From the NCBI GenBank assembly GCA_964436385.1, contig CAYTCO010000002.1, forward strand, positions 12,720 through 76,719: DNA of 64,000 nt, read 5' to 3'. This document shows positions 2,711 to 47,603 of this stretch, piece by piece (the first letter of the stretch is position 1; the number at the start of each line of letters is the position of its first letter). A program made the translations under genes and the position numbers. This DNA comes from an uncultured Gammaproteobacteria bacterium. GTDB taxonomy: Bacteria; Patescibacteriota; Microgenomatia; Levybacterales; GWA1-39-11. Under the pieces are notes generated by a model. That model did no database searches. It saw nothing but the letters and a program-made list of their open reading frames with translations, and was not told the origin of the DNA.

Positions 2711-3718
2711 ATGCGAAAGGAGGGTGGTTTTGATTCGGTGGCACTCGGAGAGTCTTTTCGGGAAAGGATAATTCGTCCTGAATCAAGAGAAATTTTCATA
2801 TCAAAAATTCCGCAAGAAGAGCTGGTTGATAGTACTCATGCATACATTAACTGTGACGGATTCGGAATAGTGAGGCGGGCCGTTACGCAAAGACCTGACT
2901 GGCCAGATATTGATATACTTCCGGAATTAGTTCCTGCAAAGCTAGGAATATCGGAAGAGGATGCATCACTTACGCAAATATTCAGAGTTGGAGCCTGTAA
3001 TTTTAGATGTTGGTATTGTTTTGTCGACTTTAGATATTTAAAGGCTGACTCTTCACGGGGTGATTTTAAGTCTCCAAGTGATTTAATAGATTTATATGAA
3101 CAAGAAGAGGTCCAAGCTCCTACATTTTACCTGACGGGTGGTCAACCTGATCTTGTGCCAGAATGGACGCTTTGGATGATGGATGAACTTGAAAAAAGAG
3201 GCATGGATAAGACTCATTTTTTATGGCAGGATGATAATCTAAGTTCGCTCTTTCTCTTTGAGAAGTTAACCCCTGAGCAACTCGATCGAATTGCGAAATA
3301 CCCCAATTATGCCCGAGCCACATGCATAAAGGGAATAAGCCCTCAGTCTTTTTCAAGAAATACGGGTGCAGCACCGGAATATTTCGATCTGCAAATAGAA
3401 GCATTGCGAAGGTTGGTGGAAGCAGGTATAGATACCTATACTTATATTACCTTGCTTGGAGAATCGGTCGCGGAAGCTAGAGAAGCGATTCCCTCTCTGA
3501 TGGATAAAATTCAAGAGGAGGTCCATCCAAATATGCTTCTTCGGGTATTTCCCTCGAAGGTAATTGATTTTCCTCAGACCGTACAAAGGGAAAAAGAGTA
3601 TCACATTCAGTTGATGGACAATCAGCAAGCAATGAGGGATATTTGGACAGAAGAGTTGGGAAAAAGATATACTCAGGAGTTATTAAGTCTACCAAAATCA
3701 GAAGTACCACTCACTTAG
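2711..3718 (+). CDS. radical SAM enzyme, subfamily unresolved
   Basis: 335-aa ORF with CNFRCWYC (CxxxCxxC) about 96 aa from the N-terminus, followed by YLTGGQPDL (a GGE-like SAM motif). There is no C-terminal Cys cluster, so no SPASM domain. TTGACA sits at 2685-2690. The exact start is uncertain: AAGGAGGG lies just inside the ORF. Confidence 0.8.
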   Translation: MRKEGGFDSVALGESFRERIIRPESREIFISKIPQEELVDSTHAYINCDGFGIVRRAVTQRPDWPDIDILPELVPAKLGISEEDASLTQIFRVGACNFRCWYCFVDFRYLKADSSRGDFKSPSDLIDLYEQEEVQAPTFYLTGGQPDLVPEWTLWMMDELEKRGMDKTHFLWQDDNLSSLFLFEKLTPEQLDRIAKYPNYARATCIKGISPQSFSRNTGAAPEYFDLQIEALRRLVEAGIDTYTYITLLGESVAEAREAIPSLMDKIQEEVHPNMLLRVFPSKVIDFPQTVQREKEYHIQLMDNQQAMRDIWTEELGKRYTQELLSLPKSEVPLT

Positions 3719-31080: not shown

Positions 31081-31989
31081 TCACTTCTTTAAAAATAGGT
31101 GGAAGGGGTGCCAGTGAAATCTGCCCTCTGATTGAAAAATTCCCCATATAACCAGCACTGAGCCGATAACAAAAGCAGTGTCAGGGAATTCCCCCAGAAG
31201 AGGGGCTGCAATTAGTATAGTTACTACCGGATCCATGTAAGCAAAGACACTAACGTCGGCAGCCGTGAGGTACTTCAGTGCATAAGTCTGCATAAGATAT
31301 GCAACAAGCGTTGATAGAAAAACTCCGAATAGGAGCCCGATCAAGCCTTGAAAAGAGAGGTCATTCAAAAACCCAAAGTGTTCAACCTCCTTTGCAAACA
31401 TAGGAATGAATCCGACGCTTCCAATTACAAATGACCAGAATGTTATTGTTGCTGCGTTATTTCTCTTCATAACCTGCCTAACAAGAACTATAGAAATAGC
31501 AGCAGCAAGCATTGCAAAGACATAATAAAGATTTCCAATCGCAGCAATGTTCCCATTTTTAAAGAAGGGAAATATAAGAACCAATATCACTCCTAAGAGA
31601 CCTACCACTGATCCAATTACTAAATTTTTTCTTGGTTTTTCTTGCAAGAATAGAAGGGAGTAGAAGACAATAAATATTGGAGCCGAGCTCCCTATCAGAG
31701 CAGCATTTATGCTGGGGGACTGCATCAGACCCAGGAAAAAGAACGTTATATTGACAGTTATTCCCAAAAAACCAAGGACAACAAGCTTAAGTCTGTCTTT
31801 TGGGTGCACCCAAAGCTTAGTTCTAACGAAAGGGAACATTATGAGGGCGGGGAGTGCAAACCGCAGAAAAGCAAGAGTGAAAGGATGGATATCATCAAGT
31901 GCCCATTTGAAAATTGGAGGAGCAGCACCCCAAATCATATTGGCTGCAATAAGTGCAAGAACAGCAAGCTGGGATTTAGATAATTTCAT
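31081..31989 (-). CDS. EamA/DMT-family transporter
   Basis: 302 aa with about 10 hydrophobic helices and the duplicated EamA-like architecture. Confidence 0.8.
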   Translation of the reverse strand: MKLSKSQLAVLALIAANMIWGAAPPIFKWALDDIHPFTLAFLRFALPALIMFPFVRTKLWVHPKDRLKLVVLGFLGITVNITFFFLGLMQSPSINAALIGSSAPIFIVFYSLLFLQEKPRKNLVIGSVVGLLGVILVLIFPFFKNGNIAAIGNLYYVFAMLAAAISIVLVRQVMKRNNAATITFWSFVIGSVGFIPMFAKEVEHFGFLNDLSFQGLIGLLFGVFLSTLVAYLMQTYALKYLTAADVSVFAYMDPVVTILIAAPLLGEFPDTAFVIGSVLVIWGIFQSEGRFHWHPFHLFLKK

Positions 31990-32003
31990 TCCGTTAAAGA
32001 TAA
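31988..32003. repeat. left copy of a perfect 16-bp inverted repeat (ATTCCGTTAAAGATAA)
   Basis: Reverse complement of 32254-32269. It overlaps the EamA start codon and the GIY-YIG pseudogene stop. Confidence 0.8.
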
Positions 32004-32253
32004 AAAACGTTTCAGTCTGTTTGCGAGATATCTCCTGCCCATGCCACTTTTTAAGTATTTTTCTCGTGCTGTGGCATCTTATTTAGTGAGGCAGGCCTCA
32101 TAATATATTAGTTCATATGGTCCTTTATTGCGAGTATAAGTTGATTTGTTGTTTTGGTGTTCGGAGAAACGTTTTCGTAAATCGCTAGTGTAGCCTGTGT
32201 ACCATTTTTTTGTTGCTAAACTTCGTAGCAAGTAAATATAGTAGAATTTGTGG

Positions 32254-32269
32254 TTATCTTTAACGGAAT
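32254..32269. repeat. right copy of the perfect 16-bp inverted repeat (TTATCTTTAACGGAAT)
   Basis: Reverse complement of 31988-32003. It overlaps the hisS stop codon and GIY-YIG codons 2-6. Confidence 0.8.
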
Positions 32270-33432
32270 TCATTCGGCAGGTCTTCTAAAGATACGGTTT
32301 TTTTAACGATTTCGCCTGCCTGTGATTTCGTTCTTATCTCGACTTGGTTGTTTTCAAGAGGAATTGCAATGAATTTTATATTTTTTTTCTCTGCAAATTT
32401 AAATTGTTTGTCAATCTTCGAATTAAAGTCTAGATATAATTCTGCGTTAACTCCTTTTGCGCGAAGAACATTTACAATATTTGAAACCGTTTCTTGATTT
32501 TCGTTTTGATTGATAACAAGAAATCTCGAAGTTGTAAGATCCTTCGGAAACAAGTTATTTGCCTCCATTGCTTCAAGTAATCTATCAAATCCGAAAGCAA
32601 ATCCTACTGCGGGAATATCTTGCCCTGAGAACATACCAATTAATCCGTCATATCGACCGCCTCCACCAACCGAGCCAGCATCAAATCCTTCAATTTCGAC
32701 CTCAACTATAAGCCCAGTGTAATAATCCAATCCTCGAGCAAGTGTCGGTTCAAAGAAAACATAATTTTTTTGTGATCCAAGTATCTTTTCTAAATTTTCA
32801 GTAGGTTTTGAATTTCTGACTTTCTCAAGTAATCCCTCGTCAAGCCCTGCATTTCGAAGTTCAGACTTCACTCCCTCTTCGCCAATCTTTTTTAACTTAT
32901 CAATAATAATAATTGCCCGATTATCCATTCCCTCAAAGACATGTCTATCGTTAACCAAAACTTTAAAGTTTTGGAAGCCCAAAGTCGTCAGACACGAAAT
33001 TACTGTATATAGGACTTCATTGTCAGAAAGGTAGGAGTTGGTTCCTGCGATGTCTATATCGCATTGTAAAAATTCACGATATCGGCCTTTCTGAGTGTTC
33101 TCAGCTCTCCAAACATTTTGAATTTGGTATCTCTTGAATGGCATAGGGAGATCATTTGTGTATTGCGCTATGACACGAGATAGAGGGACGGTCTGGTCGT
33201 ATCTCATGGCAACATTTCGATCCCCGTTATCTTTGAAACGGTACATCAATTTGTCACCTTCTTCACCGTATTTACCCATTAGAATTTCCTCTAGCTCAAG
33301 AGCTGGTGTTTCTAGGGGTTCAAAACCATAAGATTCGAATACCTTTTTCAGGGTTTCTATTACATACTGGCGTTTTCGTGCTTCTTTTGGTAAGAAATCA
33401 CGAAACCCTTTTAATGTTTTTGGTTCAATCAT
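32260..33432 (-). CDS. hisS: histidyl-tRNA synthetase
   Basis: 390 aa. GFRDFLP, RYREFLQCDID, GGGRYDGL and a C-terminal anticodon-binding domain. Confidence 0.9.
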   Translation of the reverse strand: MIEPKTLKGFRDFLPKEARKRQYVIETLKKVFESYGFEPLETPALELEEILMGKYGEEGDKLMYRFKDNGDRNVAMRYDQTVPLSRVIAQYTNDLPMPFKRYQIQNVWRAENTQKGRYREFLQCDIDIAGTNSYLSDNEVLYTVISCLTTLGFQNFKVLVNDRHVFEGMDNRAIIIIDKLKKIGEEGVKSELRNAGLDEGLLEKVRNSKPTENLEKILGSQKNYVFFEPTLARGLDYYTGLIVEVEIEGFDAGSVGGGGRYDGLIGMFSGQDIPAVGFAFGFDRLLEAMEANNLFPKDLTTSRFLVINQNENQETVSNIVNVLRAKGVNAELYLDFNSKIDKQFKFAEKKNIKFIAIPLENNQVEIRTKSQAGEIVKKTVSLEDLPNEFR

Positions 33433-47158: not shown

Positions 47159-47205
47159 CTATTGGCTAATAACTATTGTCTAATAACTATCGACTAATTT
47201 AGATG

Positions 47206-47290
47206 TGCCGCGGGAGGGACTCGAACCCTCATGACCAAAAAAGATCATTAGTTTTTGAGACTAACCTGTATACCATTCCAGCACCGCGGC
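47206..47290 (-). tRNA. tRNA-Leu (anticodon CAA), class II with long variable arm
   Basis: Manual cloverleaf: acceptor GCCGCGG/CCGCGGC, D stem CTG/CAG with a GG loop, anticodon stem TTAGT/ACTAA with loop CTCAAAA, a 17-nt variable arm (TGATC-TTTTTT-GGTCA), T arm GAGGG-TTCGAGT-CCCTC and discriminator A. CCA is not encoded. Confidence 0.9.
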
Positions 47291-47292
47291 TT

Positions 47293-47541
47293 CTATTTTC
47301 CAAACAGATTCTTCTTCATCCAGCGGCGTCCTGCCGCAGATTTGAGATATCTTTCTCTTAACACGGATTCTTCTCTGGTTTCGAATAACTCTTTGTGAAT
47401 CAAAACCCAAGGTTTAAACTTCTTTGTAAACGAACTTTCACCTCGATTATGTTCCCATAAACTATTTTCCAAATTACTTGTATATCCAACATATGTTTTA
47501 TCTTTAAGTTTGCTTAATAAAATATACGTTATATATTTCAC
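47293..47541 (-). CDS. GIY-YIG nuclease-family protein (UPF0213-like), intact
   Basis: 82 aa with a GTG start. YILLSK...TYVGYTSNLENSLWEHN and RERYLKSAAGRRW. It starts inside the duplicated tRNA D-arm sequence. Confidence 0.75.
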   Translation of the reverse strand: MKYITYILLSKLKDKTYVGYTSNLENSLWEHNRGESSFTKKFKPWVLIHKELFETREESVLRERYLKSAAGRRWMKKNLFGK

Positions 47542-47603
47542 CTGTATACCATTTCCGCCTCGGCTCGTTTCACTCGCCTTGCGAGACGGGCCAGCACCGT
47601 GGC
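47541..47603 (-). pseudogene. decayed duplicate of the tRNA-Leu 5' half (acceptor 5' strand plus D arm) with a 37-nt insertion
   Basis: On the minus strand, GCCACGGTGCTGG, a 37-nt GC-rich insert and AATGGTATACAGG match tRNA positions 1-26 (GCCGCGGTGCTGGAATGGTATACAGG) with one mismatch. Confidence 0.75.

Follow-up and report, generated by a model that had tools for sequence, protein, structure and literature searches.

The window analysed here, a 64,000-nt stretch of patescibacterial DNA, carries between hisS and an EamA-family transporter gene a small GIY-YIG reading frame that is broken by one in-frame stop codon and bounded by inverted repeats. This raises the question of what such a unit is, how it came to lie flush between two genes, and whether it belongs to a wider family. 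Positions 31985-32268 are probably one copy of a very small mobile element whose nuclease gene has just been knocked out. The element is approximately 280 bp long and holds a single gene, encoding a 95-aa one-domain GIY-YIG nuclease, between inverted ends. The features of the locus are listed below.

31081-31989, minus strand: EamA-family transporter gene; its start codon is the insertion target
31985-31988, minus strand: downstream copy of the duplicated target TGAA; its TGA is the GIY-YIG stop and overlaps the EamA ATG (ATGA)
31985-32268, minus strand: net inserted DNA, 284 nt, from comparison of the window with the empty junctions of L082 and L083
31986-32273, minus strand: GIY-YIG nuclease ORF, 95 codons; inactivated by TAA here, intact (GAA) in L003/L004 as protein P0001
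31988-32003, minus strand: 3' arm, TTATCTTTAACGGAAT; encodes the C-terminal LSLTE
31989-32268, minus strand: element core TTCCG...CGGAA, 280 nt, from anchored comparison with 42 family members and 79 metagenome copies
32061-32063, minus strand: codon GAA of catalytic Glu71, downstream of the nonsense codon
32079-32081, minus strand: nonsense codon TAA, Glu65 to stop (G to T), from alignment with intact alleles and residue alignment with the SsnA ortholog
32254-32269, minus strand: 5' arm (gene orientation), ATTCCGTTAAAGATAA; encodes GIY-YIG residues 2-7 and covaries with the 3' arm
32260-32262, minus strand: new hisS stop codon TAA, inside the 5' arm
32260-33432, minus strand: hisS (histidine-tRNA ligase); the last two codons and the stop are element-derived
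32269-32272, minus strand: upstream copy of the duplicated target TGAA, from empty-site comparison and flank statistics

Inverted ends in the window

The first-pass annotation had described perfect inverted repeats at the two ends of the reading frame, and these were recovered: ATTCCGTTAAAGATAA at 31988-32003 and its reverse complement at 32254-32269 match at 16/16 positions, 250 nt apart. Because control placements of the same geometry at related loci (n = 726) reached only about 10 matched bases at their 99th percentile, the repeat is not attributable to chance. The 16-mer is also not a common genomic word; no further occurrence was found in the window when as many as three mismatches were allowed. 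In a single-strand DNA fold, the 16-bp long-range stem was present in both the minimum-energy and the centroid structures (z = -3.4). No local hairpins adjoin the window gene, and a search of positions 31700-32600 against Rfam (E <= 1) returned no family.

The right repeat holds the hisS stop codon, as had been noted. The left repeat had been said to contain the EamA ATG, which is correct for the A and T, but the G (31987) lies outside it. The last A of the 3' arm (31989) and the following TG form the rebuilt EamA ATG, which the TGA of the nuclease frame overlaps as ATGA, again as first described.

The nonsense codon

Translation of 31986-32273 gave 64 codons, a TAA, 30 further codons and a TGA. 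Reading through the TAA had been proposed to restore a full-length GIY-YIG protein; with Glu at the stop, the product matched the Pfam GIY-YIG family with E = 2e-16, and the paralog at 47293-47541 (40% identical) has Glu opposite the stop. The inferred single change from GAA to TAA could be seen directly, as contigs L003 and L004, from two other metagenome samples and otherwise near-identical, have GAA at this codon and an intact gene. The TAA allele was found in the window, L001, L002, L005 and L007, and the codon is polymorphic between samples, a possibility that the first-pass annotation had suggested checking. Recoding of TAA was ruled out by the GAA in the intact allele of other samples and by the absence of any hint of an altered code.

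The stop falls at residue 65, six codons upstream of catalytic Glu71, and the truncated product of the window therefore lacks this residue. Apart from the nonsense change, the window differs from the intact allele by one synonymous change, and its arms are still perfect, in keeping with the earlier view of a cassette that has begun to decay. The window copy cannot make active nuclease, though its ends remain intact. Internal stops were present in approximately 5% of the metagenome copies of the GIY-YIG element.

Empty sites and target duplication

An empty hisS-EamA junction, which the first-pass annotation had proposed to look for, was found in L082 and L083 (hisS 82% and 77% identical, respectively). 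Both share the neighbourhood of the window (trypsin/PDZ, hypothetical, hisS, EamA, L31, RF1), lack the GIY-YIG gene, and have hisS followed directly by EamA, with hisS overlapping the EamA ATG by 14 nt. They carry a single CCCAATGAAATTATC / CCAAATGAGATTGTC junction, and the L082 junction, CTGCCCAATGAAATTATCTAAA, is the sequence predicted before retrieval. The element was also absent from L084 and L085. Since these relatives lack the GIY-YIG gene and have overlapping hisS and EamA genes, the window holds a 284-nt insertion consisting of the 280-nt core and the duplicated TGAA. The proposed insertion of a nuclease cassette with inverted ends between the two genes is borne out, and its size, given earlier as 282 bp, is corrected to 284 nt. 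An intact ORF without inverted ends in relatives would have spoken against this proposal; relatives with an intact ORF do have inverted ends.

The comparison demonstrates entry of the element at the initial ATGAA of the EamA gene, with duplication of TGAA. A32273 and the upstream TGAA form the ATGAA of the original EamA start, which is now the GIY-YIG start, so that the nuclease ORF uses the EamA gene's own start codon and presumably also its ribosome-binding site. The ATGA overlap at the other end is a classic arrangement for translational coupling. The C-terminus of hisS changed from ...NEII* in the relatives to ...NEFR* in the window (II to FR).

A second, independent pair of filled and empty sites was found between atpI and atpB, with L039, L091 and L092 filled and L090, L093 and L094 empty. 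At the filled atpB sites the 10-nt TGGCCGCTGA is duplicated, as checked against the empty sites. At both hisS-EamA and atpI-atpB, the inverted arms abut the insertion boundaries set by the empty sites.

A family of elements with covarying ends

The first-pass annotation had suggested searching for GIY-YIG ORFs with similar ends. End-to-end inverted repeats above the 99th percentile of the 726 controls were found in 55 of 80 homologous copies, in the same register despite differing sequences. The arms vary among loci while complementarity is kept, with double-sided compensatory changes at 10 of 15 pairs. The 15-pair helix was 97.6% paired, a value reached by 0 of 500 shuffles, and slid controls gave 32-42%. 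The 42 arm pairs used for covariation had been preselected at >=10/12 complementarity, which inflates the percentage paired but not the compensatory changes. At arm positions 1-13, no G:T wobble occurred in 546 cells. The arm mismatches (2 A:C vs 2 G:T) were too few to orient a strand in an attempt to tell an RNA stem from a DNA stem by mismatch type; only the complete absence of wobble is informative.

The consensus ends of the family are TCCCG...CGGGA, the reverse-complementary ends comprise the first and last 13-16 nt, and the length is 271-295 nt. The same anatomy was found in well over a hundred copies in Patescibacteria, before many unrelated genes, and the family is common in these ultra-small (CPR) bacteria. 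In every full copy, the GIY-YIG ORF is the sole gene between the ends, and its protein is conserved at 51-77% identity across Saccharibacteria, Microgenomates and Parcubacteria. Relatives are located within an RNase P RNA gene and at the ends of tRNA genes. The window holds a single copy and no gene-less short derivative. JGI metagenomes yielded no second site with the arm sequence of the window copy, no viral carrier was matched by exact arm patterns in IMG/VR, and we found no published description of this element family.

Start codon capture, short derivatives and recent copies

Approximately 90% of copies lie exactly on a host start codon, with a junction that rebuilds an ATG overlapping the nuclease stop (ATGA). 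The junction ATG was present in 41/42 family copies and 73/79 metagenome copies, and the downstream ORF had at least 60 codons or ran off the contig in 39/42 and 70/79, respectively. The window has 265 ATGAA sites, of which no more than 7.5% coincide with possible gene starts. The insertion targets share only ATGAA, or A|TG. A 4-nt flank repeat was present in 27 of the 42 family copies and an exact flank repeat was absent in 10; a fixed-length target duplication was ruled out by these absences and by duplications of 3, 4, 5 and 10 nt. Such variation in length is unusual for a fixed staggered cut. Matched TGGA, TGAG, TGCAA and TGGCCGCTGA flanks ruled out that TGAA travels with the element instead of being duplicated.

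Gene-less derivatives of 73-127 nt, found in 17 or more related loci, share their ends and type of junction with full copies. The 17 short hairpin copies compared have in common the arms and ATGAA/TGAA, TGGA or TGAG flanks, and 14 are on a start codon. Their arm type (GTTAGAG vs GTACGAA) was that of the resident gene-bearing copy at all 13 loci where both could be typed. In L019, two copies that are 99.3% nucleotide-identical precede different genes.

Relation of the protein to SsnA and UPF0213

The Pfam GIY-YIG domain spans residues 11-76 of the 95-aa protein, with no other domain; NCBIfam gave only a sub-threshold match to group I intron endonucleases (TIGR01453, weak), and a Pfam DUF1363 match was below the cut-off. 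No transposase of a recognised class (DDE, HUH, serine/tyrosine recombinase, Cas1) is encoded in the element, the only ORF being the nuclease. P0001 is 34% identical to the NTS-flanked SsnA ortholog of Aeromonas, and Y14, Y25 and E71 of P0001 pair with Y6, Y17 and E64 of the ortholog, corresponding to SsnA catalytic Tyr6, Tyr17 and Glu64. The best solved-structure matches were the UPF0213 proteins 1zg2 (E = 9e-10, 38% identity) and 1ywl (E = 3e-4). The bit scores of family members ranged from 27 to 56 with the Aeromonas ortholog and from 22 to 61 with UPF0213 BH0048. Judged by sequence, the protein is thus as close to the UPF0213/YazA type as to SsnA. A tblastn search of PLSDB, which includes Neisseria chromosomes, gave only YazA-type matches at E <= 1e-3. 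The CPR family has a C-terminal motif of its own, LKSGxGKRYLKNRLKRFLSLTG, part of which is dictated by the arm.

Complete 20-50-nt SRM/NTS hairpins flanking the gene were absent, with one half-stem at each end instead. Nor were NTS-type hairpins found beside homologs without bracketing arms, where we saw only a single arm remnant that faced outward (L051) and unrelated hairpins resembling terminators. A canonical NTS-ssnA-NTS locus was recognised in Aeromonas caviae (L087). No GIY-YIG gene was found on a Sphingomonas plasmid with 10 NTS copies or at the Cupriavidus and Azospirillum loci.

Alternative explanations

A chance origin of the window's inverted repeat might be suggested by the AT-rich sequence and the short arms. 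The 16/16 match, set against the controls, and the recurrence of its register among homologs already refute this reading, to which we give practically no weight. It is very improbable that the unit is a vertically inherited host gene, lost in some lineages, whose mRNA ends pair as an RNA stem with a regulatory or stabilising role. Such a gene would fit the strong covariation between its ends and the ATGA coupling to the next gene, which is typical of operons; the reading is already contradicted by the duplicated flanks and the gene-less copies. Moreover, the empty sites consist of a single uninterrupted ATGAA and ATGGCCGCTGA, with overlapping neighbours, the state to be expected before an insertion and not after a deletion. 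The downstream genes are unrelated among copies, near-identical copies occupy different sites of one genome, no Rfam family matched, and zero G:U pairs in 546 cells is unlike RNA helices.

The GIY-YIG domain is a classic homing-endonuclease fold, and the presence/absence polymorphism at two sites is clean, with insertion between genes and little disruption. These observations are compatible with a free-standing homing endonuclease gene, like T4 seg or mob, that cuts the double-stranded empty allele and is copied by recombinational repair, its inverted ends being incidental or regulatory. Homing, however, needs one long conserved target, whereas the copies lie before dozens of unrelated genes sharing only ATGAA, and the 95-aa protein has no DNA-binding domain. 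Homing yields neither target duplications nor terminal inverted repeats, and it does not predict same-ended gene-less derivatives at other start codons. The arms also covary as base pairs, and we regard homing as unlikely. A small but real chance remains that the element is mobile and the nuclease only a passenger or maintenance factor, both kinds of copy being moved through their inverted ends by a transposase or recombinase encoded elsewhere. In favour of this, strand transfer is not a known activity of any GIY-YIG enzyme, the short derivatives show that the ends suffice in cis, and the variable duplication length hints at host repair or a foreign mechanism. Against a passenger role, the strongly conserved nuclease gene is the only one in every full copy, its arm type is tracked by co-resident short copies (13/13 loci), and hairpins of just this type are bound by the related SsnA (PMC11893778). 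No other gene was noticed to recur near the copies, although no systematic search was made.

Proposed mechanism

Our preferred reading remains a mobile element, and its mode of movement is an inference. Whenever replication, repair or uptake leaves a DNA strand unpaired, its two arms would anneal to each other, giving a hairpin whose loop contains the gene. The nuclease may then recognise and nick the hairpin base, a step postulated by analogy with SsnA at NTS hairpins and without cleavage data. Host repair, replication and ligation could complete the transfer to a new A|TGRR site, and the nuclease might also mobilise the short derivatives in trans. Insertions would persist at start codons alone, the one position at which the host gene stays intact. 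By itself, a hydrolytic GIY-YIG enzyme is unable to join DNA. There is no biochemical or genetic evidence that the nuclease acts on its own arms or drives movement. Cleavage by SsnA is confined to a single strand and to one side of its hairpin (PMC11893778), and such a cut by itself does not suffice to explain excision or integration.

We tentatively put forward, as a possibility somewhat short of an even chance, that these ~280-bp units form a class of prokaryotic transposable element that has not been recognised before, in which a GIY-YIG nuclease acts on the hairpin formed by the ends of the element and mobilises gene-less derivatives. The A|TGRR start-codon design would then give the nuclease the translation signals of the host and rebuild an ATG for coupled translation. 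The units would also be much smaller than any other autonomous prokaryotic transposable element known to us; the smallest insertion sequences are roughly 700 bp.

Comparison with known systems

The closest known system is Ssn/NTS (Chenal et al. 2025, Nat Commun 16:2388, PMC11893778), in which small GIY-YIG single-strand nucleases of the family cd10448, such as SsnA of Neisseria meningitidis, are flanked by hairpin repeats. SsnA nicks at NTS hairpins and tolerates a split stem and an enlarged loop (PMC11893778), both needed for a hairpin that carries a gene in its loop. That study already noted the resemblance of NTS-ssnA-NTS to an insertion sequence and asked whether Ssn/NTS is a domesticated mobile element. 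Both systems combine a one-domain GIY-YIG protein of about 94-100 aa, in which Tyr/Tyr/Glu align, with inverted-repeat DNA linked to its gene; the stem of this DNA starts with AT(T)CCCG and finishes with CGGGA(A)T. Gene-less hairpin copies occur elsewhere in the genomes, for the CPR element in related loci and not in the window. They differ in that the CPR gene is inside one hairpin with partly coding arms ~250 nt apart, whereas the Ssn gene is between two complete 20-50-nt hairpins. The CPR element inserts at start codons, where it duplicates the target and rebuilds the ATG, and has filled and empty sites and near-identical copies; the NTS repeats are described as intergenic, without direct evidence of mobility (PMC11893778). 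The sequence identity to SsnA is low and no closer than to UPF0213 proteins, and the Patescibacteria hosting the element are not mentioned in PMC11893778. Mobility, short derivatives and start-codon capture are new relative to Ssn/NTS.

As in REP/RAYT and IS200/IS605, hairpin repeats are linked to the gene of the enzyme acting on them, many copies lack the gene, and action on single-stranded DNA is inferred for the CPR element. Those systems use HUH/Y1 transposases with covalent intermediates, a subterminal hairpin at each end and no target duplication, whereas the CPR element has a hydrolytic GIY-YIG nuclease, ends that pair mutually and duplicated flanks. The 73-127-nt copies resemble bacterial MITEs (Correia elements of Neisseria, Rickettsia palindromic elements) in their terminal inverted repeats, short target duplications and insertion beside or within genes without destroying them. 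Unlike MITEs, the cognate gene-bearing copy is only ~280 bp, the target is the start codon itself with frame and start rebuilt, and the enzyme is not a DDE transposase.

The T4 Seg and I-TevI family shares the GIY-YIG domain, selfish intergenic insertion and a cycle of gain, degeneration and loss; it has a C-terminal DNA-binding domain and one long target, which the CPR element lacks, and it lacks the inverted ends, target duplication and non-autonomous derivatives of the latter. UPF0213 (YhbQ-YazA; PDB 1zg2, 1ywl) proteins are of the same size and include the best structural match, but the CPR family differs in being multi-copy, variable in location and bounded by inverted ends. To our knowledge, UPF0213 genes neither carry inverted ends nor are mobile; in the single genomic context examined, B. 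subtilis yazA adjoins trmNF. GIY-YIG ORFs were reported in rRNA gene insertions of the same bacterial group that are not group I/II introns, occupy poorly conserved scattered sites, and were judged not to have spread by homing (Tsurumaki et al. 2024, J Bacteriol, PMC11270868). The main text of that paper does not contain the term inverted repeat or mention RNase P.

Significance

If the nuclease moves the element, GIY-YIG enzymes would join the short list of enzyme classes for prokaryotic transposition, and the minimum size for autonomous mobile elements would fall to ~280 bp. We further suggest that, if the units are such an unrecognised class, the Ssn/NTS systems of Neisseria, Wolbachia and others would descend from such elements, and the family offers filled and empty sites, recent copies and non-autonomous derivatives with which to test this domestication question. 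Each stem lying beside its own nuclease provides a catalogue of candidate nuclease/hairpin specificity pairs for single-strand DNA tools. Some of the unusual insertions in structural RNAs of CPR bacteria may be accounted for by the relatives that lie in RNase P RNA and tRNA genes. Annotation and the prediction of expression are affected because translation of many CPR genes now takes place downstream of a foreign ORF or hairpin, and the start-codon design amounts to near-harmless parasitism in compact CPR genomes.

Organization of the hisS–EamA locus

The GIY-YIG ORF was located between two host genes, all three on the same strand.

31081–31989, minus strand, EamA-family transporter gene
31986–32273, minus strand, GIY-YIG ORF
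32260–33432, minus strand, hisS

The first-pass annotation had described a GIY-YIG gene with one in-frame TAA, bounded by perfect 16-bp inverted repeats and overlapping the EamA start as ATGA, and had read it as a decaying selfish cassette; the observation was confirmed in the sequence, and the interpretation is supported and extends to a family-level finding. Translation of 31986–32273 gave 64 codons, the TAA (32079–32081), 30 further codons and a TGA. The ORF shares its ATG with the 3' end of hisS and its TGA with the EamA start (ATGA). The inverted repeat consists of ATTCCGTTAAAGATAA (31988–32003, the 3' arm) and its reverse complement (32254–32269, the 5' arm), and no further copy of this 16-mer was found in the window, even allowing three mismatches. 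When Glu was substituted for the stop, the product matched Pfam GIY-YIG (E = 2e-16) and was 40% identical to a paralog at 47293–47541. By its G+C content (~39%) and the named relatives of its hisS (Levybacteria), the window appears to come from a CPR genome of Microgenomates/Levybacteria type. A second perfect inverted repeat of 10 nt (AAAACGTTTC and GAAACGTTTT, at 32004–32013 and 32166–32175) lies directly inside the 3' arm with its partner mid-ORF, and is present in the predicted single-strand fold (window copy only).

Stop and intact alleles

Identical hisS and EamA proteins were found on short contigs from several other samples. Alignment of the junctions placed the TAA allele in the window and in contigs L001, L002, L005 and L007, and a GAA allele with an intact 95-codon gene in L003 (ERR14146630) and L004 (ERZ25038499), so that the suspected single GAA-to-TAA change is seen as a polymorphism between samples. 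Across 361 nt the two groups were otherwise distinguished by just two positions, and all shared the same arms. Because the groups are near-identical and the TAA occurs in several contigs, the nonsense allele is, as judged from these alignments, a real and recent strain-level G-to-T change. Sequencing error and recoding, considered as sources of the TAA, were excluded by the occurrence of TAA and GAA alleles across samples. The TAA lies six codons upstream of the catalytic Glu71 (32061–32063), and the truncated product should therefore be inactive. An ATGA overlap supports termination-reinitiation coupling (PMC6728339). On the TAA allele, ribosomes would halt ~90 nt short of the EamA start codon, which may uncouple EamA translation and leave the 3' arm paired in mRNA; this would be a possible cost of the allele.

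Empty and filled sites

The pre-insertion site was predicted before the loci of relatives were examined; the contigs of the hisS homologs nearest to the window were then inspected. On contigs L082 and L083 (hisS 82% and 77% identical), hisS ran directly into the next gene with a 14-nt overlap, and on L084 and L085 (hisS 72%) it was followed by EamA with short spacers between; a GIY-YIG gene was absent from the hisS–EamA junction in all of these. The L083 neighbourhood is that of the window (trypsin/PDZ protease, hypothetical, hisS, EamA, L31, RF1). The empty site reads CTGCCCAATGAAATTATC, the L082 junction CTCCCTGCCCAATGAAATTATCTAAAACCCAGG (hisS ending in LPNEII and a stop, EamA beginning MKLSK), as predicted, and the window junction GACCTGCCGAATGAA/TTCCGTTAAAGATAA...TTATCTTTAACGGAA/TGAAATTATCTAAATCCCAG. 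L082 and L083 thereby bear out the proposed insertion between the two genes. Of the 284 nt gained, 280 form the core (TTCCG...CGGAA) and the other four are a repeated TGAA. The A...T termini of the arms leave the exact boundary ambiguous, and 282 + GA or 279 + ATGAA are equally valid. On this comparison, the window element is demonstrated to be an insertion with target duplication.

A second filled/empty comparison, at atpI–atpB, revealed a duplication of 10 nt: filled loci (L039, L091, L092) read ATGGCCGCTGA/TCCCG...CGGGA/TGGCCGCTGA between the two genes, and empty loci (L090, L093, L094) contain one ATGGCCGCTGA only. Carrier assemblies, including that of L039 (CAYGGC010000001.1), are partly labelled Gammaproteobacteria, Bdellovibrionales or Limnocylindria; the label of L039 at least looks wrong, since the named relatives of its AtpB are in Kerfeldbacteria (CPR).

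Insertion on start codons

Flanks were compared in 42 copies, with the core taken as TCCCG...CGGGA. The 5' flank was ATGAA in ~36 of the 42, and the 3' flank began with TG in 41, in each of which the last A of the core and the flanking TG form an ATG. In 39/42 copies an ORF of 60 codons or more starts at this rebuilt ATG, and the downstream genes, among them EamA and ATP synthase subunit a, are unrelated to one another. Other downstream N-termini, whose first residues were read by eye, we take to resemble glycosyltransferases, sugar-nucleotide epimerases and nucleotidyltransferases. The TGA of the nuclease ORF overlaps the rebuilt ATG. An independent set was collected from JGI metagenomes by DNA pattern alone (ATCCCGTTAGAG, 235–265 nt, CTCTAACGGGAT), yielding at least 120 contigs; among the matches listed, 79 were analysed, with the ATG present in 73 and a downstream ORF in 70. 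By comparison, the window contains 265 ATGAA sites, at most 7.5% of which lie at a possible gene start.

It is clear that insertion puts the host start codon before the nuclease gene and rebuilds a start codon behind it in the ATGA overlap. The flanking repeat was mostly TGAA, with TGGA, TGAG, TGCAA, TGA and ACA also occurring, matched on both sides; as read from these junctions, it is derived from the target. Some copies, that in the window among them, use the host ATG as an in-frame start for the nuclease; in others this ATG begins a short leader (MNPVRD and a stop), the nuclease start being an internal ATG. Going by the leader-type reading frames, the arms are therefore not obliged to code.

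Covariation of the inverted ends

Homologs of the intact protein number more than 3500 (~92–95 aa), essentially all in CPR/Patescibacteria assemblies, with 60–82% identity among the best 120 of these. Ends were compared for every GIY-YIG copy in 73 loci from species-representative genomes (80 copies). Similar inverted ends, which the first-pass annotation had suggested seeking in other GIY-YIG ORFs, were found: 55 of the 80 copies exceeded the 99th percentile of 726 same-geometry control placements, in a constant register (ATGA/ATCCCGTTAGAGATA ... TATCTCTAACGGGAT/GA). Arm sequences vary by locus (e.g. ATCCCGTTAGAGCCAG, ATCCCGTACGAAATA, ATCCCGTTACATCCAG, ATCCTGTTAGAGATA and ACCCCGTTAGAGCT; CCCCTCACCCAGAAAGTTT or ATCCCCACACCTAATGAGTTT in more distant relatives of ~50% identity), yet both arms within one copy remain complementary.

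In 42 anchored copies, the 15-pair helix was 97.6% paired, with double-sided changes at 10 pairs (66 cells). None of 500 shuffles matched the observed covariation, sliding the partner by 1–3 columns reduced pairing to 32–42%, and no G:T occurred in the 546 cells at positions 1–13. The 42 copies were preselected for complementarity of at least 10/12, which inflates the percentage paired and has no effect on the compensatory changes or on the unselected 55/80 result. Because positions vary between copies and match perfectly within a copy, these alignments argue for two ends that pair with each other and against ends read independently by a protein. From the absence of wobble pairs, we infer that the constraint would act on DNA rather than RNA. 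Folded as single-stranded DNA, the window element is predicted to form the 16-bp stem in both minimum-energy and centroid structures (z = -3.4).

Short derivatives, recent copies and decay

The same loci were scanned for two arms close together. Seventeen gene-less copies of 73–127 nt were found, with ends and flanks as in gene-bearing copies (e.g. locus L012, 4098–4214, atgaa/TCCCGTTAGAA...TTCTAACGGGA/tgaaa), and 14 of them coincide with the start codon of an ORF spanning 74 codons or more. Internally they bear no relation to the nuclease gene, and the stem is longer than the arms in some (e.g. L018, L025a, L026). The arm type (GTTAGAG or GTACGAA/GTACAAA) agreed between short and gene-bearing copies in 13/13 loci with both typed, to which shared genome ancestry may contribute; CCCC-type short hairpins go with the distant subfamily (L066, L070, L072). 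One genome carries two full copies 1.4 kb apart, with 99.3% nucleotide identity and different genes downstream, and a third copy on that contig is 89% identical. On contig CAVXAH010000001 (595 kb), at least three full-length and three short copies were observed. Internal stops like that of the window occur in ~5% of metagenome copies among the matches listed. Taken together, such a mix of autonomous, non-autonomous and decaying members is typical of transposable element families.

Two short derivatives in different genomes (L025 5023–5136 and L026 4081–4197) are similar throughout (TCCCGTTAGAAATCGCGGACGCTGTCG...) and both precede a 119-codon ORF, reflecting either shared inheritance of one insertion or recurrent insertion at one gene start. 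In L051 (2966–2987), outward-facing arms (CTAACGGG-gtctat-CCCGTTAG) just upstream of a GIY-YIG copy look like two elements placed end to end, the 3' terminus of one meeting the 5' terminus of its neighbour, as in a tandem or nested insertion into a rebuilt target.

Comparison with known systems

The N. meningitidis nuclease SsnA (CAX49033.1; 94 aa) consists of a single GIY-YIG domain (CDD cd10448); it binds the NTS hairpin repeat (CGTC ATTCCCGCG MAV GCGGGAAT CYRG) as single-stranded DNA only and cuts the same strand a few nucleotides upstream of it; loop identity is irrelevant, the stem can be split over two oligonucleotides, and extensions at the loop position are tolerated (Chenal et al. 2025, PMC11893778). 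The ssnA genes are typically hairpin-flanked, which its authors likened to an insertion sequence, proposing domestication (PMC11893778). For comparison, a canonical NTS-ssnA-NTS arrangement was identified on a chromosome of Aeromonas caviae in the plasmid database PLSDB (L087), whose 102-aa protein has Y6, Y17 and E64 as described for SsnA in PMC11893778. The window family shares 34% identity with this protein, and its Y14, Y25 and E71 align with these residues; UPF0213 proteins (PDB 1zg2, E = 9e-10) are at least as similar to the family. The outer ends of the stems are similar (ATTCCCG / ATCCCG / ATTCCG). In architecture, the main difference is that one hairpin holds the CPR gene in its loop. 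Tsurumaki et al. (2024) reported that non-intron insertions in CPR rRNA genes contain GIY-YIG ORFs, and doubted homing; the term "inverted repeat" does not occur in the main text (PMC11270868). Our literature search found no published GIY-YIG element described as having inverted ends, duplicating its target or inserting on start codons.

A Saccharibacteria assembly (L069, 253–314) contains an NTS-like hairpin (GTCATTCCCGCGGAGG...CCTCCGCGGGAATGAC, 40-nt loop) with an outer sequence almost identical to the Neisseria NTS, a hint that the CPR elements grade into classical Ssn repeats. In PLSDB, NZ_CP119140.1, NZ_CP119142.1 and NZ_AP026896.1 are whole chromosomes (Neisseria gonorrhoeae, 2.17 Mb; Aeromonas caviae, 4.9 Mb) labelled as plasmids, a trap for plasmid statistics.

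Relatives at tRNA and RNase P RNA genes

In the paralog region (47205–47603, minus strand), the 82-aa GIY-YIG paralog (47293–47541) abuts tRNA-Leu(CAA) (47205–47290). The first 27 nt of this tRNA gene (GCCGCGGTGCTGG AATGGTATACAGGT) recur upstream of the paralog (47591–47603 and 47540–47553), split by a 37-nt insert (47554–47590) with a small hairpin (CGTCTCGC-AAG-GCGAG) reminiscent of NTS, and the paralog GTG start lies inside the repeated piece. The paralog has the appearance of another type of element, one that targets a tRNA gene and is bounded by direct repeats.

A distant relative (L072 2949–3751; ~50% identity, arms CCCCCACACCTTTCAGGCG) interrupts an RNase P RNA gene at position P3; the Rfam match begins at the 3' arm, and the complement of the 3' P1 strand precedes the element. 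Another helix of this RNA contains a gene-less hairpin whose arm begins identically (~3437–3488). The relative in L076 also abuts GAGGAAAGTCCG, and one with 19-nt arms (L074 2980–3347) lies directly at a tRNA gene 5' end (Rfam tRNA 3276–3347), with GGGTCCGTAG repeated on both sides.

Mechanism and alternative explanations

The sequence comparisons establish insertion, target duplication of varying length, capture and rebuilding of start codons, a pairing constraint on the arms, decay, recent copies and gene-less short derivatives; most of the uncertainty concerns the mechanism. That the inverted repeat arose by chance can practically be dismissed, and a vertically inherited gene with an RNA stem is very improbable, both being contradicted by the data of this analysis. 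A homing endonuclease is also a poor candidate: the nuclease has no DNA-binding domain, the targets are many and unrelated, and target duplications, paired ends and short derivatives all speak against homing. It is unlikely that the nuclease is merely a passenger, which cannot be excluded without experiments.

With the nuclease as driver, the arms would, by analogy with SsnA, pair within single-stranded DNA, and the nuclease would recognise the stem and nick beside it; short copies may likewise be moved in trans. Host functions would finish copying or joining, although excision or copying and integration by a hydrolytic nuclease remain unexplained. Insertions may persist only where the host gene is left intact, start-codon targeting versus tolerance being undecided. 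The family is known in kind, as an Ssn-like GIY-YIG nuclease with a hairpin repeat (cd10448 membership undecided), and we tentatively propose, with somewhat less than even confidence, that it would represent a novel class of minimal transposon driven by its GIY-YIG nuclease.
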